DNA of 64,000 nt from Callorhinchus milii (lineage: Eukaryota). This document shows positions 29,259 to 62,741 of this stretch, piece by piece. The notes beneath the pieces were generated by a model. The model ran no database searches, had not been told where the DNA came from, and worked only from the letters and a program-made list of their open reading frames with translations. The first letter of the stretch is position 1. Each line of letters starts with the position of its first letter. The position numbers were made by a program, and so were the translations under genes. The stretch lies in assembly GCF_018977255.1 (NCBI RefSeq), contig NW_024704755.1:496001-560000 (forward strand), written 5' to 3'.

Positions 29259-29736
29259 TGATCTACCGATCTGTCTGTGTCCTCCTGAAGTTCTCACAAG
29301 CTTGTTGCTTTTTTTTTAGCTAATTTCCTTATTTTTGAAACTTGTGCCCCTTTATTACCAGAATCAAAATCATTGATATAAATACAGGTCCTAACCTTGA
29401 GGGAACCACTGTTTACATCTCTCCAGTCTGAGGAACAAGTACATCTCCCACTCTCTGATTCTTTTCCTTTAACCAATTCTTTATCTTCGCTGGCGCCTCT
29501 CCCATTAACACCTCGCACTTAATATTTTTTACCTTGCCTTTTATGTGGCACCTTATTCAAGTCTTCTGAAAATCTTTACTTCCACATCTTCATGTGGGGC
29601 TTCAACCGAGCACTCCTGACTCAGAGGCGGGAGCACATCACTTTATTCTCTTGGTTATTTCATCAAAGAATTCTGTTAGATTTGTCAAACAAGATCAGCT
29701 TTTAATAATAACAATGATAATCCTTGCATTTGATAA

Positions 29737-29761
29737 NNNNNNNNNNNNNNNNNNNNNNNNN
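29737..29761. other. Assembly gap (25 N) separating two near-identical 2.68-kb copies
   Basis: N run; 27096-29735 is repeated at 29762-32413. Confidence 0.98.
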
Positions 29762-36441: not shown

Positions 36442-37682
36442 TGTGCAGAGGCTGGTGCACAACAAGGACTGGCAAAGGCTTGGTGCAAACAGCGGCCGAG
36501 GTGGAGTGGCCCAGTGCCAGGACAGGCCCCGCCCCTGCGGGGGTCACAACCTGAGAGAGGAAACGAGGTGGTGATGGCGGCTGACGTGCGGTGACACACA
36601 CAGCGCCGGCCGGACTGCGGAAGGTTCCGGTATCCAGCGGCCAATGGCAGCCACGACTGCCCATCAAATCATTCCGAGCGTCCGCGATGGCAGCTATGCC
36701 CCCCCCCCACCACGCTGCCCCCCGCGCCATCTTATGAGTTAATTTTATATTTAAAGAAAATTCCACATATAATGTTTTGTCACGGTGACCAAAGTAGCGT
36801 TACCCCTGCTCACTGGGCCCCGGGCTCCCCCCCGAGGTCCCAGCCGCCTCACTTAACCGATAGCAACTGTCCAAACCTGACCACAGCCGCTAACTCCACA
36901 GTAGTGATGCTTAACCAGATAATTTGGCACTTATTAACCCATTCCCTTCCTGTAATAACTAATCTCTCTACACGGTACCTTATACACAACCACAGTAATG
37001 CGAGGCAAGGGGAAAGCTCGCAGGTTTTAAACTTTTTTTTCCTTTATAATATCTGGTAGGTGAGTGACCTGGCTCTAGCCTCACCAGGGGCTGGGGGGTG
37101 ATGGCGGAGCAGGAATACACCCTTTCTGCCCTGTCTGCTGCTGTTGCTAAACCGTGTAACCCGGGATCAGTGTGTACCGGGGGGGAGTGTACCTGGTGTA
37201 GGTTGGTGGGATGGTACATTAGTGATATTGGAGCGTGGGGAATGGTGTACATTCCTGATTTATGTTTCTCCCTCTCCCCCGCCCCCCAATTTACTTTCCT
37301 GTGCTTTAGTTCATCCCAGAAGGCCCACGGACTGGGGTGGGGGGGCAGTGAAGGTCAGACAGCCAGTGCTGCTCTTGTGATGAGAACCTTGCCCCCCCCC
37401 CCACCAAACACTTCATGTTATCTATGATCAGTATGAGGGCCATGGGACAGTGTGTGTGTGTACTTGGGAGGAAGTGTGTGTAGGGTGAGTGTATATATGT
37501 GTGTGAGGAGGAGTGTGCTGTGGTGGGAGGGGGGAGAACAGCTGCTGAAAAGTTGAGCCGTTCGTCCCCTTCACAGAGAAACGGCTCCACCTCAGCTTCC
37601 GGCTCTAAACAGCCAAATGTGCAGCCGCCTGACTGACCCCCACCCCAGCTCTCTAACCCCATCTGTCCCTGTCCCCCACCCT

Positions 37683-39265
37683 TTTCTTCATGTGGAGCTC
37701 CAGCTCCTCTCCAGCTCCTTGGTCAGAGCCTCCAGTCTCCGCTCGGCCTGACTGGGGCCGCTCTCCCGGCTCGGGGTCACCTGGTACGGCAGCTTGAACT
37801 TGTGGGCCGCGGACGGGCCCTTCGTGGGGCTGATATTGTAGGAGAGGACGGTGATGGGGGTCGGGTCGGCGCTGGGGCCGCCGGGGGGCTGGTCGTGGCG
37901 AGGCGAGGCCTGGGCGTGGAGCCGGGGATGGTAGGGGTCCGCCGGGGAGGGCGGGTCGAGAGCCACGTACCCCTCCTCTGGGTGTCCGCTGCTCAGCACC
38001 GAGGCCCGGGGGGAGGGCAGCTGCAGGTCGGGGTAAGCGGCGCTCATGGAGCCGCGGGAGCTGTGGCTGGAGATGCTCGAGCGGGGACTGAGCACCGCCG
38101 GGCCCTGTCCGCCCGGACCCTCGGCCTCGGGGCTGGTGAGCTGCCCCGAGCGGCAGTCGGAGTAGCTGGAGCGGGGGCTGATGTGCCTCTGGTCGTAGCC
38201 CATACTGATGCCGCTGGTCCGGTTGCTGCTCGGTCTGCTCTCCGAGCTGTTGAGGCTGGCCCGCGGGCTGGAGTGTTTGCTGGTGTCGCTGGCCGTGCTG
38301 GCGTAGCTGGACCGGGGGCTCTCGTACTGGCTCAGGCTGGCCCGCGGGCTGGGGTAGCGCTCCCCGCCGCCCCCCCCCGCCACCACCACCAGACTGGCCC
38401 GCGGGCTCGGGTACTTGTCGTAGCCGCCGCCGTGCAGACTGGAGCGGGGACTGGAGTGTTTGCTGTGGTCCTGGGAGGAGGAGGAGGACGAGGCCAGACT
38501 GGAGCGGGGACTGGCGGCGCTGAGCCGCGGCTCCGGGGGCGGAGGCTCACACGCGCCGCTGCTCCTGTTCCCGACATTACTGTTTCTGGCGCCGCCGCCG
38601 CCGCCGCCGGACACACCGTTACCGCGAGGCTCCGCGACAGTGCCGCCGCGGCCGCTGGTGACGTTGTTGCGCTCCGCGGCGGCGGCGACGGCACTGCTGC
38701 GGGAAGCGGACACGTTGTTCCCGCGGCTCCCGGACCCGCTGCCTCCCGGGTACAGAGGGTAAGCGTTCAGCCGACTGCAGCTCAGCCCCTCGTAACCGCT
38801 GCTCCCGCCGCTGCCGCTGCTGCTCCCGGTGCCGGTGGAGTACCGGCGGCAGTCGGTGGTGTAACCGGGCGGGAACCCGTGCGATCTGAAGCAGCCGCCG
38901 TCCCCCTCCGCCTGGTGTAGAGGCTCCAAACCGCCGCGGCCGCCGTTGACCCCCCGGGGGGCGACCGGGGACGGGCAGAGTTTGCAGAGAGCCTCCCCCC
39001 CCCCGCCGCCGCCGCCGTGGAGATGATAGTGATACAGCCCCGAGCCGCCGCCGTTCAGCCGCCGACTCTCCCGCTGCTCCTCCCCGCCCGGCGGGTGTCC
39101 CGCCATCTGCAGGTACAGGTTGGGCTTTGTGTGGTCCGCGCACGGATTGCTCAGCTCTCTGCGGCCCCCGTACAGCCCGAGCCCGTCCCGGGCCGCCTCG
39201 TACAGCGACAGGTCCTGGAGGAAGCGGCTCGCCTGGACCCCGAGCTCCTCCGGGACCTCGGCCAT
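37683..39265 (-). CDS. WTIP: WTIP exon 1 (pre-LIM region), opposite strand to exons 2-8; 1-nt frameshift at ~37707 and truncated before EYFG
   Basis: ATG at 39265 (GCC ATG G): MAEVPEELGVQASRFLQDLSLYEA, resembling the LIMD1/WTIP N-terminus; SPRSS/SPRAS repeats; SNRTSGISMGYDQRH; GPSQAERRLEALTKELE. Adding one base gives ELE-x-ELELHMKK. As written it stops at 37690-37688 (525 aa). Confidence 0.9.
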
Positions 39266-40230
39266 GGCTTCCCTCCCACAGCCACACGGCCCCCGGGCCG
39301 TGGCCGCCCCTCCGGGGAGAGGACAGCGAACGATCAGCGAGAAACCGACCGACCCCCACAGGTCCCGATCACAAGAACATCTCCTGGACTCGATTCTCCC
39401 CGAAACCTCTTCCCGTCTCTCTGCCGCTGTTCCAGTCGGTTGATTGCAATTCACATTTTACCCAATAATAATAATAATAATAATAGACAGAATATATATA
39501 ATAATAAAACACACAGTGTGTGTGTGTGTGTGTGGGGACCGCAGCACTGAAGCTGAATGGCGCGCACGGCGGATGGAGCGCGATTTATTTTCAACGTGGA
39601 AAAGCGACCCGATCTGATCCGAAGAAAAAAGCAGCGACGCCGGAGAGAGAGAGAGAGAGAGAGGAGAGCCCCTCCCCCCCCCCCCCGTGTCTGTGCCCGG
39701 GCTCTGCGCTCTGCTCCCCCCGCGCTGAGACTTTGCAAAGTCCCCCCCCCCCCCCCCTCTCTCTCTCTCTCTCTCTGATCGCCCCCAGTACTCCGCAGTC
39801 TCCCCCGCGCCCCAGACGACAGGAGCCGGTGTTGCCCCCTCCCGGGTTTACACGCTGCTGGGGGGGGGGGGGGGGGGGCGGGGAGGGGGGGGGGCAGCCC
39901 CCGGTGCACTCTTTGGCGAGGCTGTGGAATGCGCGCAGGGGCACTGTGCAGTCGGGCAGCGCTCAGGCGGCCAGGAATGTGCTTAATACCGACGCCAAAC
40001 AATGTGATTGAGAGACTCGGGGAGGGGGGGGGGAGAGGGGGAAGGGAGGAGAGAGGGGGGAGGAGAGGGGGAAGGAGAGGGACTGAGAAGAGAGAGAGGG
40101 GGAAGGAGAGAAGAAAGAAAGAGGGAAGAACAGAAACGAGAGAAAACTTTCCGCGACTCCCACTCACACACTCACATCCACCCAAACCCATCGGTGCAGA
40201 GTCGCTCTGAGCGCTGGTAACGCAGATCCC
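39266..40230 (-). promoter_or_regulatory. WTIP 5' UTR / CpG-rich promoter region
   Basis: CpG-rich sequence directly upstream of the WTIP ATG. GGAATG (TEAD-like) motifs at ~39926 and ~39974; Ajuba-family genes are known YAP/TEAD targets, but function here is inference. Confidence 0.55.
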
Positions 40231-40231
40231 C

Positions 40232-41362
40232 CACTCACACCATGTGCCCCCTCCCCACCCACACACCATGTGCCCCCTCCCCACCCACACACCATGTGCC
40301 CCCTCCCCACCCACACACCATGTGCCCCCTCCCCACCCACACACCATGTGCCCCCTCCCCACCCACACACCATGTGCCCCCTCCCCACCCACACACCATG
40401 TGCCCTCCCCCACCCACACCATGTGCCCCTCCCACCCACACACCATGTGCCCCCTCCCCACCCACACACCATGTGCCCCTCCCCACCCACACACCATGTG
40501 CCCCCTCCCCACCCACACCATGTGCCCCCTCCCCACCCACACCATGTGCCCCCTCCCCACCCACACCATGTGCCCCTCCCCATTCACACCATGTGCCCCC
40601 TCCCCATTCGCACCATGTGCCCCCTCCCCACTCACACACCATGTGCCCCCTCCCCACTCACACACCATGTGCCCCCTCCCCACCGACACACCATGTCCCC
40701 CCTCCTCCCCACACACACACACCATGTGCCCCCTCCTCCCCTCACACACACCATGTGCCCCCTCCTCCCCACCCACACACCATGTGCCCCCTCCTCCCCT
40801 CACACACACCATGTGCCCCCTCCTGCCCTCACACACACCATGTGCCCCCTCCCCACCCACACACCATGTGCCCCCTCCTCCCCTCACACACACCATGTGC
40901 CCCCCTCCCCTCTCACACACAGTGTCCCCCTCCCCACCCACACACCATGCCCCCCTCCCCACCCACACACGGTGCCCCCTCCTCCCCTCACACACACGGT
41001 GCCCCCTCCTCCCCACCCACACACGGTGCCCCTCCTCCCCACCCACACACCATGCCCCCCTCCCCTCACACACACGGTGCCCCTCTCCCCCCACACGCAC
41101 GGTGCCCCCCCACACACACGGTGCCCCCCCCCCACACACATGGTGGCCCCCTCACACACACGGTGCCCCTCCCCTCACACACATGGTGCCCCCTTCACAC
41201 ACACGGTGCCCCTCCCCTCACACACATGGTGCCCCCCTCACACACACGGTGCCCCTCCCCTCACACACATGGTGCCCCCCTCACACACACGGTGCCCCTC
41301 CCCTCACACACACCATGCCTCCCCTCACACACACCATGCCCCCCCCTTCCCCTCACACACAC
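40232..41362. repeat. ~26-bp minisatellite (acaccatgtgccccctccccacccac) grading into variant units
   Basis: Roughly 40 visible tandem units; source of the spurious long ORFs in all frames. Confidence 0.95.
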
Positions 41363-43965: not shown

Positions 43966-46900
43966 ATGTGGCTGACGGTGCTGCTGCTGGTGATTGTGGT
44001 CCAGGTCAGCACAGTCCCAGCTGGACAGCGGTGGTGGGGGGGTGGCCTGAGCCTAGGATAGAACTTGCTTATTCTCTCTATCACTTACTCTCTCTCTTAA
44101 ATGCTCATGTTCTCTCTCTCATTATCTCATTCTCATTCAGTTCTCTCTCTGACTTTCTTGATCACTCGTGTTTTCTGTCTCTCACTTTTTCTCTATCAAT
44201 CACTTTCTCTTGCACTTTCAACACTTTTTCACTCTGTCTCTCGAGTCGACTATCTATCACTCGCACTGTCTCTTGCTTACTTTCTCTCTATTACTCTCGC
44301 ACTTTCTCAATTTCTCTGCCGATCATTCTCTCTGATTCAGTGTGGGTGTGGTTCAGGAATAGAGGCTGTTATTGAGTCTCTGTTGTCTGTCTCCCCCACC
44401 CAGACTGGCAGCCAGCGTCAGGCACGTAGTGAGAACCTCATCGAGACCCAAGCGGAAATTGAGACCTTATTCACAACTGAAGGTTTGTGTCTGTGCGTCA
44501 ATCCCTCAGAGACCCAATTCCCGACCCTAACCTTCACTCAGAATTCTCTCGGCCAGACTCAGTCGCTCGCGCTCTCGCCTCTGAGTCAGAAGGTTGTGGG
44601 TTCGAGCCCCCCACACGTCAAGGACTTGGAACCATATAGGCTCATAAGCTGATGCTCCACTGGTAGCTCGGTGTCAATAACAAATTGTATTTATAAAGCA
44701 TCTTTCATGTCGAGAGGACATCCCAAGGCGCTGGACAATCAGTGTTTCGGACCCAAGCTTGGGGTCGGGATCAGGGAGGGTGGAGGGCAAGGGGTGAAGG
44801 AAGGTGGCCGAAGGCATGGTTGAAGTGGAGGGTCTTGAGTTGCGTCCTGAAGGAGGCAACGGAGGGGGCGAGGTGGAGGGACTCTGGAATGGAGTTCCAG
44901 GGGGTGGAAGCAGAGTGGCTGAAGGCTTGCCCACCAATGGTGGGGCAGGTGAGATGGGCTTCGTGGAGTAGGTTCTGGAGCCCCTTGAGTGGATGGAGCA
45001 GGCAGGTTAGTAGTAAGGGGTTAGGAGGTTGCAGGGGTAGGGGGAGCAAGGTCATGGAGGACTTTGAAAGTGAGGACCAGGATCTTAAATTGTGTCGTCT
45101 GTGTGATGGGAAGCCAGTGGAGTCGGGTGAGGATGGGTTGTATTCCCTTGGATTGTATTCCCTTGAGTTTAGAAGGTTGACGGGTGATTTGATTGAGGTA
45201 TTTAAGATGATAAAGGGATTTAACAGGGTAGATGCAGAGACGCTATTTCCTCTGGTGGGGGAATCCAAAACAAGGGGGTATAGTCTTAAAATTACAACAA
45301 GGCCATTTAAGAGTGAAATCAGGAAGCATTTTTTCACTGAAAGGGGGTTGGAAATCTAGAACTTTCTCTCCCAAAAGGCCGTGGATGCTGGATCCATCAA
45401 CACCTTCAAGAGTGAGGTTGATAGATTTTTTTGGTAGGTCAGGGTATTAAGGGATATGGGGAGAAAGTGGGAAATTGGAATTGAAGGATTAGTTGAGTTA
45501 CAGATCAGTCATGATCTAATTAAATGGCGGAACAGGCTCGAAGGGCTGAATGGCCTCCTGAAAAGCTCGAAGAGCTGAACGCCTGAATGGCAAGAAGGGG
45601 GGAGGGCAAGAGATGTGAAGGGCAAGAGAAGTGGAGGGCAAGAGGGGTGAAGGAAAGTGGGATAAAGGGAAGAGAGGTGGAGGGCAACAGAGGTGGAGGG
45701 CAAGAGGGGCAGAGGGAAGAGGGGTGGGAAGATGACCAAAGGCAAAGGTCGAAGAGGAGGGTCTTGAGATGGGAGTTGAACGGGGCAAGGGAGGGGGCGA
45801 GGTGGGATACATGGAGCAGGCTCACTGGGTGCTTCGTTTTGCTCAGATTGTGTCTGGTTCCCTTGCTATGAGACTCAGTCCTGTGAGCATGCAGTGGGGA
45901 TCCCCGAGAACATCAGGAAAAGAGAAGGGAACAGCAGCCATTGCAGCGGGCTCCAGGCAGTGACCATCGAGTGGAACCCAAGTCCTTACGGTAAGGATTA
46001 CAAATGAGCTGTGTGTCAACCTGGTGCGGTGGTAACGTTTTCGCCTCTGTGTCACAAGATTGTCACAAGCCCCCACCTCAGTATTTGGAATCACAATCTA
46101 AGCTGACACTCCAATGCATTGCTGGAGTGTGTCGCATTGCCAGAGGTAGTGTCGTAAGGATGAGATGTCAAACTGAGGTCCCGTATGCCTGTTCAGGTGG
46201 ATGTTAAAGATCCCATAGCACTGTTTGGAAAGAGAAGGGAGTTTCTTTTTCCTGGTGTCCAGGCCAACAATCCCCCGAATAAAATTGGTCCTCACTCCAT
46301 GGCTGTTTTGGGACATTGTTGTGCGCAAACTGGCTGCCGTGTTTTGTCCACAAAATACACTCACTCTGGATGTGGATTGGGGTAACTCCTGGAGTCTATT
46401 CAGACTGAGGGAGAGAGTGTCGGAAGGGTGGGGGCTCTGTCAGGGGGAGTGGGCAAAGAAGGCGCTGATTGATCTCTGGTATCTCTTATTCCAGGGATCG
46501 AGTTTGTACAGGGATTTCGGGTTGACCTTGTGTCCCTCTCTGGCCCGAGCTCGGTATCCGAATGCAGACAGCTGGTTCTCCGCGATGGCGTCAGATTGGA
46601 GCCGCAGTTGGTCAGTCAGGCAGGGGAGGAGGGCTTAAGTACTCTGACGGGCGCAATATAAATGCAAGCTGTTGTTGCGGGGATTGGGTTGGGGAGTGTG
46701 GGCATTGGATTGAGCGGTGGGGGTTTGGAGGGTTTGCAGTTGGGGTATTAGAGTTGGATTTGGGGACTGGAATCAACCCTCTCCCTCCTCTGTCTGTCCT
46801 TGGAGCCCAAATAGCTGATATCCTCACCCATTTCTGTTGTCCAGATCATTGGTAGCACATTTTGCCTTGGTTCAGACACATTGTACGGAGCTGTGGTCTA

Positions 46901-49900
46901 TGGATTCCCTGTCCCACCTGGCCGGGAGCATCATGCTCAGCAAATCCAGTTCCGCACAAACTGTGAGTGTCTCTCTTGTCCCAGGATTGCTTTTATCCTA
47001 CGATTTCACCTTAGTTTGTCAGCCTGGCTCAGTCGCGCTCTCACACCCCCAAGTCAGAAAGTTGTGGGTTTGAGCTCCCTACACATTGGGGACTCGGAAC
47101 CATATAGTCAAAGCTCCAGTGCAGATTGGAGGAAGAGAGAGCACTGCATTGTCGTGGGGGCTGTCCTCTGAATGAGACATTAAACCTCTGTGCTCTGTTC
47201 AGGGTGGACATTAATGATCTCTCTAAGGGGAAAAGAGAAGGGAATTTCTCTCTCTCTCTTCCGGCGTCCTGGCTGACAGATAAAACCATTTGCTCGCTTC
47301 ACAGCTGTTTGCGGGATGTCGCTGTGTGCAAGTTGGCTGCTGTGTTCGCCCACAAAACACACAGTCACAACACTCTACAGTCAATTCTGTGAAGCGCTTT
47401 GAGACGTCCTCCCGACCAAGTTAGGATTATAATTTTTTAAAACTATTCCATTGTTTTATTTTTTTCTCACAGCCTCATACTCTAATGGCAGACGAGCAAA
47501 TCCTTCAAGTAAGAGTTCAACCTCCACCACCCATCCCAGGCTCTGTCGCATTCGCACACCCTCAGACATACACCCTCACACAATGACACACAGTAACACA
47601 CACACACACCCTCACACAGTGGCACACAGGCAGGGAGTGGTACTGAGTGTGACTGTGTGTGTAACAGCCTGGACGCCCTCTCGCCTGAGCTTCACGCAGG
47701 ACGGTCATGATGTCACAGTTAGCTTCACCGCCGCCGCTGACACCGACAACATCAACAGTTACCACGTCTACCATGGTCGCTGCCCTCCCGGGGAGCCGGC
47801 TCCTCTCTCCTGGCAACACACCCACATGGTGAGCAAACTCTCCCCCTGCACCACACTGTCTGTGTCTGTTTGTACGTGTCTATGTGTGCATCTGTGTATG
47901 CACACGGGTGTGTGTCAGTGTGCATGTCTACATCTTGGTGTTGGTGCTGATTTCAACGATAAAGCCAAGTCTCTTCCCTCAGCCTCATGACGGAGCTGGG
48001 ACTGTGCAGGTTAGACTGGGGAGCCTGGAACCCGGCTTTAACTACAGTGTTGTGGTGAGTCAACTCCTCCCTCCATAGACTGCAGATCATCCAGATCTCT
48101 GCAGTCCGTGTCCTCTTCCACACCAGGCTCCACGACTGTATCACCTACCTCCTCGCCTGACTCCGCTGGCAGAGGATACAGTTCAAGATCCTGGTCCTCA
48201 CCTCCATAGCCCTCCTTCCCCTACCTCTGCGACCTTTTAATAATCCCCTACCAACCTGCCCGTTTCCTCCTGCTTCATGTCCCCCGCTTCAACCGCCCCA
48301 CCATTGGCAGGTGGGCCTTCTGCCACTCTGCTCCACCCTCTGGAACTCCAACCCTCAGTCCCTCCACCTCACCCCCTCTCTTGCCTCCTTCAAGACCCGT
48401 CTCAAGACCCTTCTCTTCGACCGTGCCTTCGGTCACCCTCATTCCCCCCCACTTCCCTCCACCCTCCCCAATCCTGACTCCCAGCTTGGGTCCGAAACAC
48501 TGATTGTCCAGCGCCTTGGGACGGCGGACCTGCCTGGCTCAAGAACCGGACTAGAGACAGGCACGGAGGACTGGCTCGATTCCAACATTCCGTTGCCAAA
48601 CTTGTCACCTTAGAGCCAGTTCAGTTCCAAGGGACCCCGCTTCTTGTTGTCTCTGAGAGCATTGTGCTGAGTTGGTTTCTTCTCTGACACACTGAGTGTG
48701 TATTTTTTGCAGCTTCTGTCTGATCAGGAGGGAGCTGAGCGACGAGAGGTAACATATTTTGTGAAATCAGGTAAGTCTGAGCTCACAGGACCGGCTGACG
48801 CTCTACCGCAGATCTGGAGGGAGAGAGAGCGTCACATTGTCGGAGACTTTAAACCTCACTCCCCGTCCGTGCCCTATTTGGGGCGGATGGTAAAGATTGG
48901 TGTGTGTGTATGTGTGTTAACCCTGTAAAACAAAGCCCTAACAAGTCGGTGATCCAAGTCGCGGGAAAGCTTGCTAGACAGCATTCTCAATGGTGGTTTC
49001 AGCTGGTTAGACTCCAGCAGTTATTCCAACCCACACTCTGGGATCCCCTAAGCCTTGGCTCTCGCTCTCTAAGCATGGTGATGGGATTCTGCGTGGGTCA
49101 GGCATGCGGCTGACTGAAGTATAAAGTGTGTGTACATGCGTGTGTGTTCACAGAGCAGACAGGAGAGGGACAACAACTCACACTTACTCTGCTGCTGGTG
49201 CTCTTTGCTCTGATCTCGACCGTTGTCACTGTGACAGCCAGTCATCTCATCAACAACAGGAAGCAAAGTGAGTGTGCTTCATCTCTGCTCACCGTGTGTG
49301 TTTGTTTTGTGTGTATTAAGAGTGTGTGTTTGTCAGTGTATATATATGTCAATGTGTATGTCAGTGTATGTGTAAGTACGTCAGTCTGGCCTTCTATCTC
49401 TGCCTTTCTCATTGTCTGACTCTGTCTGTTTCTCTCTTCTCTCAGATGGAAAGCGAGGTGAGGCTGGCTTTGGGGACGACTCTGTGTCTGAGCCCTTCAC
49501 AACACAGAGAGTCTCTAACCCAAGAGTCTTTCTCCTGTACCCAGACACGGCCTCTCCAACGCTGCTCAACGTGGTACTTCACTTTGCCACTTTCCTACAG
49601 GCACACTGTGCTTGTCAGGTTAGTCACTCGCACTCCCCCCAGGCCTACACACATTCACAAATTAACACTCACCCCAATCCAATACACCCAGATGCACTCA
49701 CACAGTGATAGACACACTTACATACACATACTCTCACACACATACACTATGACACTGACACACACACACACTGTGACTGTGGTGTCTGACTCCCCTCAGG
49801 TGGTGCTGGACATGTGGGAGGAGCTGGCGAGGGGCCTGGAGGGGCGAGCAGACTGGATAGTTCGGCAGTTGGCTGAGGCCCACTTCATCGTTGTGATGTG

Positions 49901-50279
49901 TTGGCCGGGAGGCGGCTGCCCACCGGGGCCCGGATGGGGGGGCTTCTTCTCCCTGGGGGTGTCACTGGTGGCGGAGCAGCTCCTCCAGGCCCGGATAAAT
50001 TCAAGCGGCCTCTCCCGCTTCATTGTGACCTGTTTCGGACAATGCAGAGAGGCCGATGTCCCTGGGGTGCTGGATTTGGCCACGAAATACAAGCTGATGG
50101 AGGCCTTGCCCAGGTTTTTCTCTCACCTTCACTCCCTGGAACTGCTGGGCCCAGGCCTGGCCCTGCACGTGGACGGGATCTCAGAGGAGACTTACCCTGC
50201 AACCCCCTCTGGATTTGCTCTGTACGAAGCTCTAAGACTCGCTGGGGAAGATGGGAGCATGGAGTCAGCCACACTCTGA
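43966..50279 (+). CDS. Divergent interleukin-17 receptor D (Sef)-like type I membrane receptor with SEFIR domain, 12 coding exons, 529 aa
   Basis: Exons 43966-44004, 44404-44482, 45847-45990, 46495-46610, 46845-46962, 47473-47508, 47668-47828, 47983-48054, 48713-48770, 49154-49267, 49446-49618, 49800-50279; GT-AG, 1590 nt in frame. Signal peptide MWLTVLLLVIVVQTGS, with an in-frame stop upstream at 43870. AVTIEWNPSPYGIEFVQGFRV and WTPSRLSFTQDGHDVTVSF resemble the IL17RD ectodomain. TM segment LTLTLLLVLFALISTVVTVTA. SEFIR: PRVFLLY, NVVLHFATFLQAHCACQVVLDMWE, DVPGVLDLATKYKLMEALP. The first two exons are less certain. Confidence 0.85.
44675..45137 (-). mobile_element. L2 LINE 3' fragment
   Basis: Minus-strand PTIGGQAFSHSASTPWNSIP..SFRTQLKTLHF and L2 tail. 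Confidence 0.85.
45138..45560 (+). mobile_element. CR1 LINE 3' fragment
   Basis: LYSLEFRRLTGDLIEVFKMIKG..LFPL..TRG; 3' end gaacaggctcgaagggctgaatggcctcc. Confidence 0.88.
47020..47412 (+). mobile_element. Near full-length tRNA-derived SINE
   Basis: Head cagcctggctcagtcg..gagtcagaaagttgtgggtttgagc, Deu-like body and L2-like tail gtgaagcgctttgagacgtcct. Related copies at ~17550-17730, 46090-46365, 50290-50525, 54130-54570 (+) and 20230-20690, 58090-58530, 63010-63375 (-). Confidence 0.8.
48060..48522 (+). mobile_element. L2 LINE 3' fragment
   Basis: LWNSNPQSLHLTPSLASFKTRLKTLLFD motif. Confidence 0.85.
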
Positions 50280-51645: not shown

Positions 51646-54600
51646 ATGGAGGAAGTTGATCGGATTCTGCTCAACTCCCTGAGACAGAGCGGCGCGTGAG
51701 TCACCCCCTAACTCAATAACTAACTCATTAACTAACCCCACAACAGCTCACTCACCCCACAACAGCTCACTCACTCAGTAACCAGCTCAATACCCCATTA
51801 ACCAACTCACCAACTCAGTAACCAGCTCAATACCCCATTAACCAACTCACCAACTCAGTAACCAGCTCAATACCTCATTAACCAACTCACCAACTCAGTA
51901 ACCAGCTCAATACCCCATTAACCAACTCACCAACTCAGTAACCAGCTCAATACCCCATTAACCAACTCACCAACTCAGTAACCAGCTCAATACCTCATTA
52001 ACCAACTCACCAACTCAGTAACCAGCTCAATACCTCCATTAACCATCTTAATAACTAACTCACTGTCTCAATACAACTTGCATTTATACAGCGCCCCCCA
52101 CGCCGGGCGGCATCCCAGAGCACTCAATAACCAACATAGCAAGACAGCAGCCCGTGGGTCATCCCCTAACCCAATAACTGTCCCAATAACCAACTCACTA
52201 GCCCAATAACTAACTAACTAACCAACCCCAGGGCGGCACGCAAGTTTCTCTTTAATCCAATAACCAGCTCACTATCCCAATACCTAATTCAATAACTAAC
52301 TCAATAATCAACTTCCTTGGGCAGAACGGCATGTGAGTCACCCAGCAATTCAGTAACTAACTCAATAACTTCCCGAGTCACGGCAGAGCGTGTAACTCAC
52401 TGACTGATTAGATAACTCACTGCCTGACTGGCTGAGCCACTGACTGGCTGCCTGTGACTAGTGTCTCTGTCTTCACAGGGACATCGCGGAGGATGTGGAG
52501 AGCGTGCGACAGCTAACAACTGAGCTGATTGTGGAGTGCGTGGTCCGCTGCTTGCGTATCCTCAACCCGGCCCTTGGGAATGGCGTCAGCCACTTGCTTC
52601 CACCGGGAATGTCGGCTCGGTTCCGGATCGGAATGTGCCTTGCCCAGGCCTGTCAGGTGAGCGATATCTTGAGGAGATGAGCTGATGAACGAGCGAGCAG
52701 TTTTATCTATTGAAATCTATCTAGTATTATCTCTGAAATGCTGTACACTGTCCCCCCCGATGTGAAAGGCTCTATACAAATGTAATCTTGTTGTTGTATT
52801 GGCCAGGAAAAAAGATCTCCCTTTTACCCCCGATAGTGCTGCGGGAGATCTTTGATGTCCTCCCTGAATAGGGCATGGATTGCGAGTGAGGTTTAATGTC
52901 TCATCCGAAGGACGATGCATCCGACAATATGGCGTTCTCTCCCCGCCAGCACTGCACTGGAGGGTCCGATCTGTGGACATTAAAGATCTACCACCGCACC
53001 GTTGGAAAAAAGGGAGTTTCTCTCTGTCTCTCTTAATCCTTTGTATCTTCTCCTACATGTTTAGGAGCTGGGTTACCAGGGTGAGATTGGGTACCAGACT
53101 TTCCTCTACAGCAATGAGCCGGAGATCAGGCGTCTCCTCATGTTTCTGGTGGAAAAGCTTCCTCGAGACAGTGCAGACACAGCAGACCAGCCTGCAGGTA
53201 AGTTATGGCAGCCCGGCTCAGTTGCTGTGTATGTCAGCCTGGATCAGTCACTCGCTCAAACAAGTCCTTCTTTGTTTTGTGTCTTGACAGAGAAATCAGT
53301 TCTCCTTCAGAGATTGATTGCCACTAAGATCAAGCAGCAACTGGCCAGCGCTTGGCTACCGCCTGCTCTCCGCACCACGTCTCTGCTCAACACTCAGGTC
53401 AGTCTCTCATAATAAGCCTCACATCTGGCCAGAGCTCCCACCTCAAGAGGATGTCTTGAAGTACTTCCCAGGGATTCGCTGTAATGTGCGTTTTGTAGGG
53501 CCACCGATTTGAGCACAGTGAACGTTTTTATCTGTTGGCCAGGACACCGAGAGAGAGAACGAGGGGAAGGAGAGAGGGAGAGTCGCTTTTCCCCCCAACG
53601 GCGTTGAAGGAGATCTTTAACAACTAATAACAGCCATGTGTGTTTCTTACACAGAATTCCTGCCTGATGAACAAGTTCCACTCTCAGGCGCTCAGCTTGG
53701 TGGGCAGCACAGAGGGACACGTCCCGAGAGGTAAGTGCAGCTGAGTGAGAACAGGCCTGATTGCCTGACATCCGGGGCGACGTCTCGATGCGCTTTACCA
53801 GGTTTCACTGCCTCTGGTTCTGAGCTGTGGGGGTGAGAGACAAAGGGAGCTCTCTCCATCTGCTCCTCCTCTCTCCCCCTCTCAACAGTCTCTCTTGTTC
53901 ACAGAGCTGTGGGAATACTGGGAACAGCACCAGCCGCCGGTGACAGCTCAGGCCTGGGACCAGGCCTGTGTCGCAGCCTCTGTGCTGGAGCGAGCGACAG
54001 CTGACCTCAGCGCCGTGCAGGAGTGGGAAGCAGAGTGGAACAGCCAGGGCTTGGTCTCTCGACTCTCCCCTGAGGTAGGTGTGGCACTCTGGGAGGTGGG
54101 GGAAAAGAGAGCTCCTGTTTCATTGTGTATCAGCCTGGCTCAGTTGCTTGCACTCTCACTTTTGGAGTCAGAAGGTTGTGGGTTCAAGCCCTACATCAAG
54201 ACTTGCAATCACACAGTCAAAGCTAACGCTCCAGTGCAGTGCTGGGGAGTGTTGCATTGTCGGGGGCGCTGTCCTTCGGATGAGACGTTAAACCAAGTTC
54301 CCCGTTCATGCTCTGCTCAGGTGGACGTTAAAAGATCTTTCCACAGCATTATTCGAAAAGAGACGGGAGTTTCTCTCTCCCCTCCAGTTTCCTGGCCGAC
54401 AATCTCCAAATAAAATCGGTCTCTTGCTCCATGGTCGTTTGTGGGACACTGCTGTATGCAAACTGGCTGCCTCGTTTCACCCACAAAATACAGTCACTAT
54501 ATTTCTGTGAAGTGCTTTGAGATGTCTCAATGATGGGATAACGCACCATATCAAATGCAAGGATTATTATGAAAATATCTTCTCCCTATGTTTTTCGTTC

Positions 54601-57600
54601 TCTCACACAGGAATACAAAGCCAGGAAAAGGCAGCGTTTACAAAGCAGGATACAGGAATATTTAAAACAAAGCAGCCAGCGGTCAGAGGTCAGGGCAGGT
54701 CTCGCTGGGACCCCTGCCCCCGACCTGACAGATCCCCGCCCAGACCACAGGTGTCTCCGAGCTAAACACTCTCGTTTCATCCACACTGAAAAATTCACTT
54801 TCACACAGGTAAGTGAGGACCTCGTCCTCTCTCTACCCCGCTGTCTCCCCCTCTCTTGATTAGTCTTTATCCCTCCATCTCTGTCTCTATCATTCCTCTC
54901 TTCCCCCCTCCCCCCACCCATCTTCAAATCCAGTCTTAAAACCCACCTCTCAAGATTTCGAACCCCTTGATCCTGTCACTTTGAAGAGTTCTAAATGCAA
55001 GTCCTGGCTGACAGATCTGTGTCATCACTCTTTGTTGTGTTTCTCCCCCCCCGCCTCCCCACCCACACACATATACAGGAAGCTGATAAAGATGTGAGTC
55101 AGTCACTGGCGTCCATCAGCGGCCGAACCTCATCGAAGGATTCACAGGAGGTGAGAGGGAGCGAGGCTGGGAGGGAGGGAGAGAGAGACACTAGTGGGAA
55201 ATGTGTGTGTTATTCACCGTAACCAGCCACTTCACTGAGAGCCCCCACACAGACTCTCAACACATAGTCACTACACTTCTCTCATCAGTTTCCTCCCCCA
55301 ACACCACAGGATGTTCAGGCAGAACAGCAGAAGGAAGTGAGGGAGCTGGAGAAACAGCTTAAGAGTTTGGGGGAACAAATCCAGGATGTGAGAACAGCCA
55401 TGGAAACCCAGACCCTCACTGTGAACCAGGTAAGTGCCCAGCGCGAGGGGAGGATTGTTAATAATAATAGTCCTTGCTTTTGATATAGTGCCTTATGTTG
55501 TTGAGACGTCTCAAGCGCTTCGCAGGATTTACTGGGGGTGGAGGAGGTATGGTTACAGCCTGGGTGAATGGAGAGTGACGCTGGTTTGTGTTGAAGGCGG
55601 AGGAGGAGACAAGGGACCGGGAGCTGAGTGCAGAGGAGAAGCAGCAGCTACTACACATCAGGAAGCGAGCGCTGGACTTGCTGCCTGACGCAGAGGGCAA
55701 CCTAAGCAAACTGCAGGTAAATCACAATCACTCAACTGGAGCAAATGCCAGGTAACGCGTTGACACACACTGGCTCACACTCAAGCTCATCAAACTGCAG
55801 GTAACCTGCGCTCGCTCACACTTGCTCTCGGTCACACTGACTCGCTGACACGCATGGTGTTCGTCTCTCTTGCCCAGGCTGTGATGGAGGCCAGTGCCCA
55901 GCGGCTGGTGAGTTTGGCTGGTCAATGGGAGAAGCACCGAGTCCCGCTCATCGCGGAGCACAGGAGGCTGAAACAACAGCTGGACAGCCACGAGGTTAGC
56001 GGGCCGCTGGGGGGTGGAGAACTGGGGTTGTCTGTCTGTCGCTGATGCCATCTGTTTCTGTCTGCCTTGTTTTGTAACTGTCTCTCTCTCAGTCTGTCTG
56101 TTTCACTTTCTCTGTCGCTGACTTTCTCTTTGTGTCTTAGCTGGAGTCCTCGCGACGACTGATGGAGATTAAAGAATTTCATGAGAAAATTAAAACGTCA
56201 GCAGAGGAGGCGAAGAGAAAAGAGAACGTTCATCGTCAGCTCGTGAGTCACTGCTCCCCGCCATGTCTGTCTCTCACTCCCCTCCTCTTCGTCTCACGCC
56301 CCTCTCTGTCTCGCTCGCTCCCCCCACTCTGTGTCTCTTTATTTCTCTTCTCTCCCCCCCCCCCCTCTCACTATCTCTTGTCTCTCTCAGGTGCTGGAGT
56401 TGGAGCATTTGTCGCGTGGGGTGGGTCGAGCAGCGTACACTCAGCGCATCCTGGAGATTGTCAGTAACATCAGCAAACAGAAAGAGGAAATCACCAAGGT
56501 GATGTCTTGGGTGGCGAGGGAAGGAGGGAGCAAGCGAGGGAATAGAGTGGAGCTCAGTGCTTGCCTGCTGTGTACTTATTAGACGGTCTCTGTGCGTCTC
56601 TCCTGCTTGACCCTCTCCCCTCTCCATGTGTGTTTCAGATCCTGTCAGACACGAAGGAACTACAGAAGGAGATTAACAGCCTGACGGGCAAGCTGGACAG
56701 GACCTTCGCTGTCACAGACGAGCTGCTCTTTAAGGTTGACAAAGAAATCCACTTAACTCCCCTCCCCCCACCCCCAACGCAGGGGGCTCTAAGCTCAGTC
56801 CAGGTTGACACTCCTCCCCCAGATTCATGAGAGGGAGCGAGTGTTGCCAGAGGAGAGGGTACAGGATCTTAAACACCCCCCATTGTGTCTTGGCCAACAA
56901 TCCTCCAGATTAATGGCTCATCCTCGAGCTGTGTCTGAGTGTGTGTAGGAATGAGTATATATGTGTGAGAGTCAGTGTATGTGTGTGAAAGTGAGTGTGT
57001 ATGCGAGTGTTAGTGTGAATGCAAGAGTGAGTGTATGTGAGTCAGTTACGTGGCCTAGGCAAATGGCTGCCATGTTGGCTGCTGACTTTGCCCCAACATG
57101 CACAGACCTTTCTCACTGACTCTCTCTCTGTCTCTCTTTGAAGGATGCAAAACGTGATGAAGCCGTGCGGAAAGCTTATAAATACCTCGCAGCTCTGCAC
57201 GAGGTGAGCACAGGCAGGCGGGTGGTTAGACGCGAAAGGCGCAATGTAACTGAGAGTCGTGGCGCTCTGTGAGACATCTCTCTGGGATGAAAGACGTGTG
57301 TGAATGTACATGGTCGTATTCTCCACAGAACTGCAGTCAGCTGATCGAGACCATTGAGGACACAGGCACCATCCTCAGGGAAGTCCGCGATTTGGAGGAA
57401 CTGGTGAGAGAGTAACACTCATTCCCTCTCTTTGTCGCTCGCTCGCTCTACTGTCTGTCTCTCTGACTCACTCGCACTCATTCCCTCATGGGCTCTGTCC
57501 CTCTCGGTCACTCCCCTCTCTCACTGAGCGCTGTGACAGGCCAGAAGCTGGTTATTAATATTCTGGTGGGGGGGGGGGCATTGTTTTGCAGATTGACTTG

Positions 57601-57705
57601 GAGACGGGAAAGAAGACTTTAATTAACTTGGAGAAGATCTTGGAGGATCACAGAGCAATCAGACAGGAGAACGCTGGCCTGGCTGGTAGGCTGAGAGAGG
57701 CCTGA
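51646..57705 (+). CDS. CCDC22: Coiled-coil domain-containing protein 22 (CCC/Commander complex), 17 exons, 631 aa
   Basis: Exons 51646-51695, 52479-52656, 53065-53197, 53291-53397, 53655-53730, 53905-54074, 54611-54808, 55079-55150, 55310-55429, 55597-55716, 55878-55994, 56141-56242, 56391-56498, 56639-56734, 57144-57203, 57329-57403, 57592-57705; 1896 nt in frame. Motifs MEEVDRIL, LPPGMSARFR, IGYQTFLY, AYTQRILEIV, KLDRTFAVTDELLFKDAK, ENAGLAGRLREA*. Confidence 0.97.
51770..52045. repeat. 40-bp tandem repeat (aactcagtaaccagctcaataccccattaaccaactcacc), ~6.5 copies, CCDC22 intron 1
   Basis: Near-perfect visible repeat with a 40-nt period. Confidence 0.95.
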
Positions 57706-58024: not shown

Positions 58025-58863
58025 ACTTATATCAAACACCCATGTCTTGTCAATCCTAGTTTTACACTGGGGTTTTGATACCCAGAGTTCAACGATCAAT
58101 AACAATAATAGCTTGCGTCTAACACGGAGGCTTCCATGTCGAAAAGATGTCTTGAACACTTCACAGGGTTTCACTGTGAAGTGTAGTTACTGTGTTTTGA
58201 GGGCGCTGTGAGGCAGGAATGAGTGCCAGTGAGTCAGAGACTGACAGTGAGTGAGACTGAGCAAGAGTAATGTCCCCTCAAACAGCTGTGAAGCAAGTGG
58301 CTTTATCGGCCACGAGGAGAGAAACTCCCTTCTCTTTTTCCTCTCGACAGCTCCGTAGGAGATCTTTTAAGGTTACCCTGAACAGGGCATGGACGGAAGT
58401 GAGATTTAACATCTCATTCGAAGAACAGTGACTCCCAACACTCGCCCCAGCGCTGGGCTGGAGTGTCGGCTCAGACAAATCGTGCGAGTCCCTGATTTAT
58501 AGGGGATCAAACCCACAACCTTCTTGTGAACTGTTAACGTCAGTGATAATTAGTTATCTCCGAGGACACGCTGTTATTGTTAACCATGCTAGTGTTAATT
58601 ATAGTTAACAATAACTTAGTTATTTAGTAAGTTAATTGGTCAGTTATTATTCAACCAGTTAATTAGTTACTAAGTTAATTAGTTCTTCAGTCAGTTAATT
58701 ATTTAGTAAGTCAGTCAATTAGTGATTTATTCAGTCAGTTAATCAGCTATTCAGTCAAATATTCAGTAGTTATTCAGCCAATGAATGAATCAGTCGGTGT
58801 CAGCAGTGAGTGTTGTGGCCTCCAGGGGTCGCTCTCTCCCTCCCCGGGGCTGAGCGGGAGGGG

Positions 58864-61800
58864 ATGGAGCCGAGGGCCGCGGCGGTCCCGGGCCCGAGTT
58901 TGGGGGTGAAGGCCGAGCCTGGAGGTACCCCGGACCCAGGCCTCGGCCTGTGGCTGTGGAGCTGGAATGTAAACGGGATCCGTGGCTCACGTTTCAGCCA
59001 CAAACTGGAGGAGAATCAGCGCCACAATCAGCCCCGGATCATCTGCCTCCAGGAGACGCGAGTCAGCAGTAACTATGATCATATCAGAGAAATATCATTC
59101 ATTTAATATCATAAAACTGCAATAATTCCCTTCAAAACAATAAAATAATAACGTGGTGACTTCAATCCTGGACCGTTTGTGGGTATAATGAACTGCTGCG
59201 TTTCATCCACAAAACACAGTCACTACACTTCACAGCATATTGTGCGAAGCGCTTTGAAATGTTTCGAAGACACGATAAGACTATATCGCACTCGACGATT
59301 ATTATTGTTGTATATAATAAACATATACTAATCAGTGGCGACCAGGAGACCGGAGACAGTGTGTAAAATTGATCTAAAATAATAATTAAAAACGGTCTAA
59401 TATCAAATAACATTAATATAGTACAGTAAACTCCCGATAACTTGTTGCTTTGAGGGGAAAGGGCTCAATGATGAGTTAACAGGAGCTGAGAGTTAGGCGT
59501 GTGTATAAATATATATTGACTCAATGATACCTTAATTCCTAGTGCCGGGTTAAGGTATTATGTGAGTGAAAGTGAGAGCGTTACATTGTCAAAGACGTGA
59601 AACCTCACTATCTATCCATTCCCTGATCAGGGCGGACGTTAAAGATTTCCCGCAGCGCTGTCGGGGAAAAGGGAAGGGGGTTTCTCTCTCTCCCCCCACC
59701 TTCCCTGACCGATTGTTTTTTCAGGGGAACATTAAATTTCTCTCTCGATCACAGGAGATTCTCTGGACGAACCAACAGCGATAACTGAAGGCTATAATTC
59801 ATATTTCAGCTTCTGCAAGACTCGTAGCGGATACTCAGGTAATAATTAATAAAAACTTTCCGGTGGTGTGTCAGAGAGAGAGAGAGAGAGAGAAAAAAAC
59901 TCTTCCCCTTTTCCCCAACAGCCGCAGGAGATCTTTGACATCCACCCTGATTGTAATATGCTCCAACCCAGGTCAACAACAAGAACAAATTACATTTGTG
60001 TGGCGCCTTTCATATCGGGAGGACTTCCCAAGACACAGCATAGTCCTAATGCTCTCTCTCTGTCTCTCTCCTATCTCTCAGGAGTCGCCACTTTTTGCCA
60101 GGATAGTGCTACGCCCTTCGCTGTGGAAGAAGGTCTCTCGGGCATTCTCAGTCACTGGACTGGGGAGGTGGGCTGTTATGGCAAAATTCAGAAGGAATTC
60201 TCCGAGCAGGAACTCAGGATGCTGGACAGTGAGGGCCGAGCACTGATCACCCAGCACCGCATAATGTAAGCTCCTCAAATAATGATTGATATTATCAGTT
60301 ATTGCTTCTATCAATAATACTAATCATCATCCATAATAATCAATATTAATTGTTGTTAATAATCAATTATAATCAATAATAATTGCTATCAATAATATTT
60401 ATCATGAATCAATAACAATATCAATAACTAGTCACTAGTATAATCAGTACAAAATTACATTTGTAAAGTGCCTTTCTCGTCAGGAGGACGTCCCAAAGCG
60501 CTGGACAGTCAGGGATTAGGACCCGAACGGTGGGTGGGGGGAAGATCAGGGAGGGTAGAAGGCACGAACAAAAGAGGGTCTTGAGACGTGCCTTGAAGGA
60601 GGCAAATGAGGGAATGAGGCAAAGGGAATGTGGGGTTGGAGAGGCTGAAGGCCCAATAACCGAGGGTGGGGCAGGCTGGGCGGGGGACACAGCGCAGGAC
60701 GGAGCCCGCTGAGCGGAGGGACCGGACTGGTTGGAGAGGGTAAGGTCATGGAGGGCCTTGAAGGCAAGGTTGAGAATTTTGAACTCGATTCCCTGTGGGA
60801 TGGGGAGCCAGTGGAGTCGGGTGAGGGTGATGGGGCCACGGAGCCTGGTGCAGGATAGGACACGAGCTGCAGAGTTCTGGATGATCTGCAGCTTGTGGAG
60901 GAAAGAGTTGGGAAGGTCGACAAGCAGGGCGTTGAAATAGTTGAGCCTGGTTGTAATGAAGGCATGCATGAGATTTTGAATGCCTGAGAGGTGAAGCAGT
61001 TGGTGGAGTCTCTTATAAATAGTATTAATGCTAATTAATTCAACAGCAATGTCTCCACAAGCAGTCGTGGAGAGAGTGGTTTTATCTGTCGGCCAGGACA
61101 CCTCGAAAGAGCTTTTAATGTCCATCCTGTATAGGGCATAGACAGGTAGTGAGCTTTAACATCTCAAAGCACCTCCGACAACGCGCACTGTGCCCCAGCG
61201 CTGTGCTGAAGCATCATTTTAAACAATCTCAGTCCTAACGTCACTGTCTGTTCCTCAGAAGCAGGGATGAGAAGGAGGCCGTGCTGAGTGTTATTAATGT
61301 GTATTGTCCCCGTGCCGACCCTGACAGAGACGATCGCAAGCTCTACAAACTGAGGTTCTGTCAGCTCCTGCAGGCAAGAGCCGAGGCCCTGCTCCAGGCT
61401 GGGGGGTGAGGACAAGCTCCCTGGTACTCTCGCTAACTGTCACTCCCTATCTCCAAGGGTGGTGGAAGCCAATTCGATAACAACTTTTAAGAGAGTAGAT
61501 ATTTGGGGAGGACAAGTTTGCAGGGGTATGGGGAGAGAGCGGGGGAGTGGGATTGATTTGGAAGCTCTTTTCAAAGAGCGGTACAGACACGATGGGTCGA
61601 ATGGCCTTCTGTGCTGTATAATTCTATGATTTCATCTCTCTCTCTCACACTTTCGCTTACTCTTATCTTTTTGTGTCTGTCTGTCTCTCTTTCTGTGTCT
61701 CTGTTGTGCTCTCTCTCTCCCCCTCTGAATGTCTGTGTCCTGTTGTCAGGCACGTGGTGGTGCTGGGAGACATGAACACGTCACATCGACCCATAGACCA

Positions 61801-62741
61801 GAGTGACCCAATGCTGGTGAGTCCTGGGGGGAACGAGGGACTCTCTCTCACATTCTCTTTATCTCTCACTCGCTCTCACAGTCACTCTCTCTCACACACA
61901 GGAGGGATTTGACGACAATCCCTGCCGTCAGTGGTTGAGAGGATTCCTTGTGGGAGGAGTGGAGGTGGGAGGTGCAGCAAAAGGGAGTCTCTTTGTTGAC
62001 GCTTTCCGCCATCTCCACCCAGGCCTCAGCGGGGCCTTCACGTGCTGGCGAAACTCCACGGCCGCCCGCAAAACCAACTTCGGCTCCCGCATCGATTATG
62101 TGCTGGTCAGCCAGGGCCTGGCAGAGGCCGGGCTGGTGGCCTGCGACCTGGAAGCAGAGATTCATGGTTCCGACCACTGCCCGGTGCGAGCAGTGCTGGC
62201 CTGTGGAGTCCTGGCCTCACCTCACCGCCCCGTGCTGTGTACCGCCCGCTGGCCGGAGTTCGCCGGCCGGCAACTCAGCCTCTCGCGCTTCCTGGTCCCC
62301 ATACGGCAGACGACAGGTTCTGAGAGCCTTGGTCCGGTCAGGAAAAGGAGAGCGACTGCCCAGCCCAGCTTGCTGCCGTTCCTGAGGTCAATAGCAACCA
62401 GCGGTGAAAAGTACCTGGCAGGGACCAGCAAAGGCAGGGAGGGGGGAGGCCTGAGTGGAGGCTTGGTCTTACCCCAGGCCCAGGGCGAACCTCAGTCCCA
62501 AGAACAGCCCCAGGCGGCTATATGGAGGTTGTTGCTCCCTGGGCCCCCACGTGCCCCCCTGTGCCGGGGTCACCAGGAGCCATGTGTGCTCAGGACGGTG
62601 AAGAAAGCCGGGCCGCAGCGGGGGCGACAGTTTTACACATGTGGACGACCGCAGGGGGCAACCTCAGACCCCCGTTCTCAGTGCCGCACTTTCCTGTGGG
62701 TCAGCGGGAGGGTAAAGGGGGAAGGAGGTTCTGCGACGTAG
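58864..62741 (+). CDS. APEX2: Apurinic/apyrimidinic endonuclease 2, 6 exons, 508 aa
   Basis: Exons 58864-59068, 59755-59838, 60082-60265, 61259-61405, 61750-61816, 61902-62741; 1527 nt in frame. EEP motifs SWNVNGIR, ICLQETR, GYSGVATFC, DSEGR, NVYCP, LGDMN, GSRIDY, GSDHCPV; PIP-like QPSLLPFL; C-terminal Zf-GRF (CRGHQEPC..GRQFYTC..C..FLW). Confidence 0.96.
60445..60985 (-). mobile_element. L2 LINE 3' fragment in APEX2 intron 3
   Basis: Minus ORF with HAFITTRLNYFNALL, KLQIIQNSAARVL, LHWLPI, FKILNLAFKALH. Confidence 0.9.

Follow-up and report, generated by a model that had tools for sequence, protein, structure and literature searches.

We analysed a stretch of 64,000 nucleotides from Callorhinchus milii (contig NW_024704755.1, positions 496,001 to 560,000; this whole stretch is called the window, and positions are counted from its first letter) and found that it carries, at 43966..50279 on the forward strand, a gene for a receptor of the IL17RD (Sef) family. 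Twelve exons join into one uninterrupted frame of 529 codons across 11 GT-AG introns, and CCDC22 and then APEX2 lie 3' of the gene on the same strand. Our data suggest that the gene is an ancient, tail-less paralogue of IL17RD. The protein matches UniRef A0A4W3JWX6 ('IL17RD-like, Callorhinchus milii') at 527 of 529 residues, and both mismatches, Q29R and N437S, are alleles present in contigs. The gene thus already carries the database label 'IL17RD-like'.

All exons lie on the forward strand. Exon 1 (43966..44004), joined to exon 2 in run X3, provides the start codon and a short hydrophobic leader, likely a signal peptide, the sole basis for which is a hydrophobic stretch at residues 2-12. Exon 2 (44404..44482; frame, spliced contigs, alignment) encodes an N-terminal segment in which a Cys cluster kept in orthologues is lost. 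The first fibronectin type III (FnIII) domain starts in exon 3 (45847..45990; frame, spliced contigs, Pfam, structure model), continues through exon 4 (46495..46610; spliced contigs, Pfam), which contains Pfam IL17R_D_N, and ends in exon 5 (46845..46962; spliced contigs), whose 118 nt equal the canonical IL17RD exon length. Exon 6 (47473..47508; frame, spliced contigs) is a 36-nt phase 1-1 linker exon without a Cys pair. The second FnIII domain spans exon 7 (47668..47828; spliced contigs, Pfam, structure model), exon 8 (47983..48054) and exon 9 (48713..48770), where it ends, the last two identified by frame and spliced contigs. The transmembrane helix is encoded by exon 10 (49154..49267; spliced contigs, structure model, hydropathy) and a juxtamembrane segment without Tyr plus the SEFIR start by exon 11 (49446..49618; spliced contigs, residue scan). 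Exon 12 (49800..50279; spliced contigs, alignments) holds the remaining SEFIR with W376, a Gly/Pro loop in place of the CC-insert helix, P488-G489 and the stop codon.

Introns 2-11 were all bridged by spliced contigs in three of four runs (X1-X3, from two studies), while X4 joins three introns. Intron 1 (44005..44403) was bridged only in X3; it is read through in X1 and partly covered in X2, and in runs X5 and X7 exons 1-2 were uncovered. Retention of intron 1 (X1, partly X2) would remove the signal peptide frame and could reflect regulation or pre-mRNA. The runs were taken as RNA by guess, with no RNA record; the spliced joints serve as evidence and contig depths were not used. Four coding differences were present in contigs (Q29R, one silent site, V355L and N437S), with no stops or frameshifts, and the listed contig indels all fall outside coding exons. 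The window gene is real, spliced and intact.

Pfam SEFIR (PF08357) matches residues 339-480 (E 2e-23, 83.6 bits against a cut-off of 23) and IL17R_D_N matches residues 69-123 (E 5e-8, 33.5 bits against a cut-off of 25), with a weak fn3 match at residues 181-258. Hydropathy peaks at about residues 280-308, and the structure model places the transmembrane helix at 279-311. This model (predicted local distance difference test, pLDDT, 72.9) consists of two beta domains, the helix and a SEFIR fold, and a fold search with it ranks IL-17RA ectodomain structures first; exon 12 folded alone gave a low-confidence model (pLDDT 54.9). A first-pass annotation, made from the letters of the window, had proposed a complete 529-residue ectodomain-transmembrane-SEFIR receptor. 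The exon structure, domain matches and structure model agree with it, and the introns joined in spliced contigs speak against the possibility, also raised there, that the gene is unexpressed. The tail is about 10 residues long, compared with about 180 (167-221) in canonical IL17RD, and no Tyr lies between the transmembrane helix and SEFIR. This confirms the proposed absence of the long tail and of the juxtamembrane Tyr (Y330 of Sef).

We found that the same genome has a canonical, tailed IL17RD on a separate contig (C12, 19.98-19.99 Mb), with tail, juxtamembrane Tyr and linker Cys pair. The window gene is therefore not the only IL17RD of the genome but a second receptor of the family, as had been proposed. 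Downstream of the C12 gene, in a scan of 149 of 384 long frames, come exons for BAR_3, ankyrin and dynein heavy chain. We take this order to be APPL1, ASB14 and DNAH12. The window gene lacks the canonical neighbourhood, that position being occupied by the C12 gene. All 10 comparable intron phases (introns 2-11) match between the two genes, including that of an intron inside SEFIR. The last exon of our canonical model has an imperfect acceptor and lies outside the tree columns. An IL17RA-type locus lies on C5 (46.57 Mb) and an IL17RB-type locus on C12 (2.04 Mb), labels that come from tree grouping, likeness to human chains and the named lamprey IL-17RA.1 and are not database names; at both, SEFIR is in one open frame. 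SEFIR identity of the window protein is 37-44% to jawed-vertebrate IL17RD against 24-29% to RA/RB. Two further SEFIR loci, C4 8.65-8.66 Mb (L054, L056) and C222 83.5 kb (L055), are ACT1/TRAF3IP2-like. No IL17RC/RE locus was found among the 10 SEFIR candidates in the genome, and the search for a branch-b gene (defined below) gave known loci only in its candidate list.

To place the gene we collected a family set by HMMER library search (162 proteins, 150 listed; word-index searches with protein and alignment gave two each). At least 33 proteins are RD-like by best match and tree among the matches listed. The maximum-likelihood tree used 36 rows and 478 columns under LG+F+G4, after 10 of 46 rows had been dropped for speed; the approximately unbiased (AU) tests used 26 rows, 10 more having been dropped for speed, and fast or shortened constrained searches, and are rough. 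The RD-like sequences form a clade (node support 97.6/97) with two branches. Branch a (96.7/99) contains the window gene, Heptranchias (sevengill shark), lungfish, two coelacanth genes, reedfish, paddlefish and bowfin, and fragments from gar and sterlet match it best. Branch b (95.5/97) contains coelacanth, lungfish, reedfish, paddlefish, bowfin, gar and teleosts. Canonical IL17RD of sharks and bony vertebrates forms one group (100/100).

The AU tests reject the window gene inside canonical IL17RD (p 0.021), RD-like sequences joined to RA/RB (p 0.015) and chondrichthyan genes in branch b (p 0.002). Membership of the RA/RB lineage, a possibility left by the first-pass annotation, is therefore rejected, and its view that the gene is closer to IL17RD than to other IL-17 receptors holds in intron phases, SEFIR identity and tree. 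IL17RD-lineage membership follows from the IL17R_D_N domain, the matching phases, and the tree with its AU tests. A grouping of amphioxus and cyclostomes with canonical IL17RD is also rejected (p 0.026, fast constrained trees), in line with a duplication after the divergence of amphioxus, with weak node support against amphioxus (30.9/63); a later split of branches a and b is unrejected (p 0.076). Since both the canonical and the RD-like lineage hold cartilaginous and bony fish, the duplication is older than the cartilaginous/bony split. The first and second rounds of genome duplication (1R, 2R) are both compatible with this timing, and the AU tests choose neither. Two branches were probably present in early jawed vertebrates.

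The first-pass annotation had tentatively viewed the gene as a feature of cartilaginous fish that mammals lost, and neither part holds as worded there. A chondrichthyan-specific gene is rejected by orthologues in lungfish, coelacanth and ray-finned fishes. No tetrapod was found among 23 named RD-like members (clustered library, matches listed), which is an absence there and not proof of loss; judged from these sequences, the loss looks tetrapod-wide and not mammal-only. Two short SEFIR-less proteins of IL17RD-like FnIII domains, P0073 (lungfish) and P0156 (gar), apparently lie on the contigs of RD-like genes and may be decoys of a local cluster. A chimeric model from Acipenser sinensis (P0031) combines tyrosine phosphatase, acyl-CoA dehydrogenase and branch-b exons, which hints at the neighbours of branch b.

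In the available part of a cryo-EM study of IL-17RA/RB/ACT1, co-receptors carry a Trp (IL-17RB W368) that stacks on P544 of an IL-17RA hairpin, and this hairpin is described as unique to IL-17RA among human receptors (PMC12828022). The same text reports that IL-17RA tail repeats polymerise ACT1 and are needed for the filament, that co-receptors other than RD have tails under 30 residues, and that the CC-insert helix sits in the RA-RA interface (PMC12828022); in one study, as far as its accessible text goes, CC-insert helix mutations in mouse IL-17RA had little effect on ACT1 binding (PMC4014126). We found that W376 of the window protein aligns with IL-17RB W368 and P488 with IL-17RA P544. Trp was present in 25 of 25 RD-like sequences covering the site (26 examined); Pro at the P488 column was present in all 26, as Pro-Gly with IL-17RA spacing in 24. 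Canonical IL17RD has the Trp in 15 of 15 and Pro at the P488 column in 12 of 15, with the Pro-Gly pattern in none. RA-clade sequences have the Pro in 53 of 58 and the Trp in four of 58, lamprey IL-17RA.1 among the four. A hairpin pattern matched 21 of 26 RD-like, 0 of 15 canonical IL17RD and 2 of 58 RA sequences; since it was built on RD-like spacing, the counts by column give the fairer comparison. Tails of RD-like sequences span 0-59 residues, mostly under 30, and the window protein has no SEFEX tail repeats and a Trp instead of the RA-type Leu.

Taking the conserved Trp and the short tails together, we hold with slightly better than even confidence that the window gene is an ancient tail-less IL17RD paralogue likely to act as an IL-17RA-dependent co-receptor, a reading drawn from sequence comparison. 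In this model the paired FnIII domains would contact either an IL-17 dimer or a receptor already carrying ligand, and W376 would pack against the IL-17RA beta-hairpin in the manner of IL-17RB W368. ACT1 would next be polymerised by the tail of IL-17RA itself, leading to TRAF6/NF-kB signalling. The paralogue would give ligand or tissue specificity and have neither an ACT1-binding tail nor Tyr330-dependent Sef functions. Candidate partners, the IL17RA-type locus and the two ACT1-like loci, are present in the genome.

Several observations weigh against this reading. The subfamily keeps an IL-17RA-type hairpin motif that is superfluous for a plain co-receptor, and to our knowledge most IL17RD contexts have no known ligand. 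The window gene has the longest terminal branch of the subfamily (0.87). Monophyly of branches a and b is preferred, yet neither branch a with canonical IL17RD (AU p 0.36) nor branch b with it (0.23) is rejected, and cyclostomes may be sister to IL17RD (0.75) or outside both (0.51). Intron 1 retention in X1 would stop the frame after 31 codons. In the chimaera copy the N-terminal and linker Cys are lost and the CC-insert helix is replaced by the Gly/Pro loop (pLDDT <50). Exon 6 has no Cys, while the equivalent 45-nt exon of canonical IL17RD in the same genome retains the pair; orthologues in the subfamily keep Cys at linker and N-terminal sites, and the CC-insert helix as well. Absence of the linker pair, proposed by the first-pass annotation, is therefore correct for exon 6 but fails as a subfamily trait, and it was rejected as a marker since orthologues keep Cys and a whale-shark canonical IL17RD model drops the entire linker. 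Two shark canonical models, P0017 and P0167, are without the 45-nt Cys-pair linker exon present in the canonical chimaera gene, which may be exon loss or an annotation gap. Judged by sequence, the chimaera copy is the most eroded member of the subfamily.

The erosion raises the possibility that the protein is a decoy or brake, which would bind ligand or join SEFIR strands and block ACT1 polymerisation like the inhibitory side of IL17RD, with the chimaera copy perhaps decaying under relaxed selection. The missing tail, the lost CC-insert helix, the Cys losses, the long branch and the three of four coding alleles that change a residue all fit this, and IL17RD loss raises ACT1-mediated TRAF6 ubiquitination in one context, according to the accessible part of PMC7805053. 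However, short tails are normal among activating co-receptors (PMC12828022), relaxation cannot be read from as few as four alleles, the CC-insert helix persists in orthologues, and W376, P488 and the SEFIR core are invariant in a 15-sequence alignment. We therefore regard a brake as unlikely.

Presence of both the Trp and the hairpin, the two halves of the SEFIR handshake, raises more unusual possibilities. One is an unrecognised further IL-17 receptor class already present in the first jawed vertebrates, an IL17RD ohnologue that seeds ACT1 without IL-17RA or bridges strands and was lost on the tetrapod stem; this seems distinctly unlikely to us. A more specific proposal is that SEFIR is self-complementary, so that Trp and hairpin Pro let copies stack mutually and dock ACT1 without IL-17RA, as a remnant of an ancestral receptor state. 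The near-constant Pro and Pro-Gly in RD-like sequences, a hairpin pattern frequent there and absent from canonical IL17RD, and the 54 of 58 RA-clade sequences without the Trp (the four exceptions including lamprey IL-17RA.1) are consistent with this, and the hairpin is described as unique to IL-17RA among human receptors (PMC12828022). Yet the tail repeats found necessary for the filament in that text (PMC12828022) are missing and the RD-like-spaced pattern matched only two RA sequences. The aromatic RA F542 is Leu in the window protein and variable across the subfamily, and the model shows a single bridge (484-491), not a full hairpin. We give self-complementarity little credence.

The protein could also be a second Sef that chiefly restrains FGF receptor signalling by feedback during development, since its closest family is IL17RD. 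The role of Tyr330 in Sef is disputed, and in one study the N-terminal part of SEFIR was needed (PMC7805053, in its accessible part); loss of the Tyr therefore only weakens an FGF role. Still, canonical, cyclostome and amphioxus sequences retain the juxtamembrane Tyr motif, which the 13 RD-like rows shown lack, tail motifs are absent, and for the teleost sister branch PMC11942210 reports a presence in gill, gut, skin and further immune-related tissues and a response to infection. A second Sef is thus very unlikely. Translocation of an IL17RD orthologue, a pseudogene or an artefact of assembly are scarcely credible explanations: nearby assembly faults (an inverted WTIP exon 1 and a duplicated segment) invite the idea, but the introns are all spliced and orthologues exist in many lineages, and the canonical gene on C12 with the AU rejection (p 0.021) rules out translocation.

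The co-receptor reading leaves the origin of the locus to be considered. CCDC22 (approximately 52462..57700, +) is single copy in the genome, and APEX2 (approximately 58810..62738, +) shows Exo_endo_phos and GRF zinc finger matches; both lie at Xp11 in human. Ahead of the nuclease start motif, the first APEX2 exon (58810-59103) carries an atypical N-terminal extension; the exon looks more divergent than the later ones and gave no Pfam match. In sterlet, an automated APEX2 model runs from the N-terminal part of APEX2 into branch-a exons that are 74% identical to the sturgeon paralogue, which suggests APEX2 adjacency in a second lineage. C12 carries ALAS, FOXP and MiT genes together with IL17RD, and C5 and C19 carry FOXP and MiT. 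A fourth FOXP, likely FOXP3, lies with a CBM_21 (PPP1R3-type) gene on C1058 (L076-L078; 23 kb, 56% GC), without CCDC22; we take this pair to be CCDC22 neighbours at Xp11. The search for anchors of an Xp11-type chromosome yielded neither a MiT gene nor a second clear ALAS.

We propose that the IL17RD ancestor was duplicated prior to the jawed-vertebrate split, probably by genome duplication, that the copy came to lie on a FOXP3/CCDC22/APEX2-type chromosome, and that its tail was lost. Among the points that count against this, the sterlet linkage comes from one chimeric automated model, and the contig order (TAF4, LSM14, DUF4745, PGI (GPI), WTIP, the trio, UBA2, PDCD2L, carboxylesterases, a Ras-family gene, cadherin) is not the IL17RD paralogon. 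We take the GPI-WTIP-UBA2 block to be human 19q13/16q22, within which type of region the trio would now lie in this assembly. The Xp11-type setting proposed by the first-pass annotation therefore stands for CCDC22 and APEX2, with the APEX2 linkage recurring in sterlet, but not for the wider TAF4-LSM14-GPI-WTIP-UBA2-PDCD2L-CES block. Most simply, the trio either left a FOXP3-type chromosome or was mis-joined; a mis-join is possible because tandem arrays flank the trio (C14 563137-574800 and window 40227-41362; period 662, ~17 copies; period 25-26) and WTIP is locally scrambled. These arrays may be insertion borders or join points. The WTIP-like gene (33974-39457) has its LIM exons on the forward strand (33974-36438) and a long first exon downstream on the reverse strand (~39331-37691), which close to its 3' end seems to carry a frameshift of one base; local mis-assembly or inversion is likely. 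At 27110-32413, two copies of a 2.6-kb segment, 97.4% identical, flank an N run at 29737, likely a haplotype duplication.

The IL17RA-type (C5) and IL17RB-type (C12) genes share contigs with FOXP/MiT pairs, and may therefore be ohnologues of the same paralogon. A small-scale duplication before jawed vertebrates, with a later move beside APEX2, is an alternative origin that is independent of the receptor's mechanism. Branches a and b apparently share contigs in reedfish, bowfin and paddlefish, so local duplication acted on the subfamily, and the contig context is outside the paralogon. However, the genes directly beside the window gene are both of Xp11 type, the linkage to one of them is seen again in sturgeon, and in this genome the RA- and RB-type genes track that FOXP/MiT paralogon as well. 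We consider a small-scale origin possible but rather unlikely. Of the ohnologue claim made at first pass, duplication before the jawed-vertebrate split is retained, and its placement in a genome duplication is likely.

Among the sources covered in part (PMC11942210, PMC11136934, PMC9477748, PMC8353272 and bioRxiv 2026.04.13.718218 among them; some older receptor papers and supplements lie outside this coverage), no publication was found that presents the subfamily as ancient or reports on the chondrichthyan gene. With this subfamily the number of IL-17 receptor lineages in early jawed vertebrates rises, a tail-less RD-like lineage joining RA, RB, RC/RE/REL and RD. The subfamily also bears on a question raised with a 2025 structural model, the way in which the earliest receptor switched on ACT1 before RA and the co-receptors took on separate roles (PMC12828022), and is a natural test of that model. 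The parts are divided, with canonical RD keeping Trp and tail, jawed-vertebrate RA hairpin and tail, and RD-like Trp and hairpin; if RD-like receptors truly kept both halves of the handshake, tetrapods split them between IL-17RA and co-receptors. By its sequence, the RD-like receptor may be a candidate for orphan fish ligands.

Compared with canonical IL17RD, the window gene shares intron phases, IL17R_D_N, the layout of two FnIII domains, transmembrane helix and SEFIR, the co-receptor Trp and much of its SEFIR sequence. It differs in its neighbours, in lacking the tail and juxtamembrane Tyr, and in keeping a Pro-Gly hairpin motif that canonical IL17RD lacks; its orthologues keep the N-terminal Cys cluster like cyclostome and amphioxus sequences, unlike canonical IL17RD. 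Teleost IL-17RD2 of snakehead, as described in the accessible part of PMC11942210, belongs to the same tail-less subfamily (599 aa, 12 exons, IL17R_D_N and FN3), and the start primer given there translates to the branch-b N-terminus of P0022/P0025. Snakehead IL-17RD2 is thus branch b, whereas the window gene is branch a. That text discusses the IL-17RD duplicates under teleost genome duplication (PMC11942210). Our tree contradicts such an origin for the IL-17RD/IL-17RD2 pair: because branch-b genes also occur in lungfish, coelacanth, bichir, paddlefish and holosteans, IL-17RD2 is far older than the teleost duplication.

With the IL-17RB/RC/RE co-receptors the window gene shares a short tail and the Trp that in them stacks on the IL-17RA hairpin, but it is of another lineage and gene structure and adds the RA-type hairpin motif. 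With IL-17RA it shares the Glu/Pro/Gly spacing of the hairpin and the helix that follows. It differs from IL-17RA in the absence of SEFEX repeats, the Trp for the jawed-vertebrate RA Leu, the intron inside SEFIR and the AU rejection of RA/RB grouping. Lamprey IL-17RA.1 carries both the Trp and the Pro-Gly, as does the window gene.

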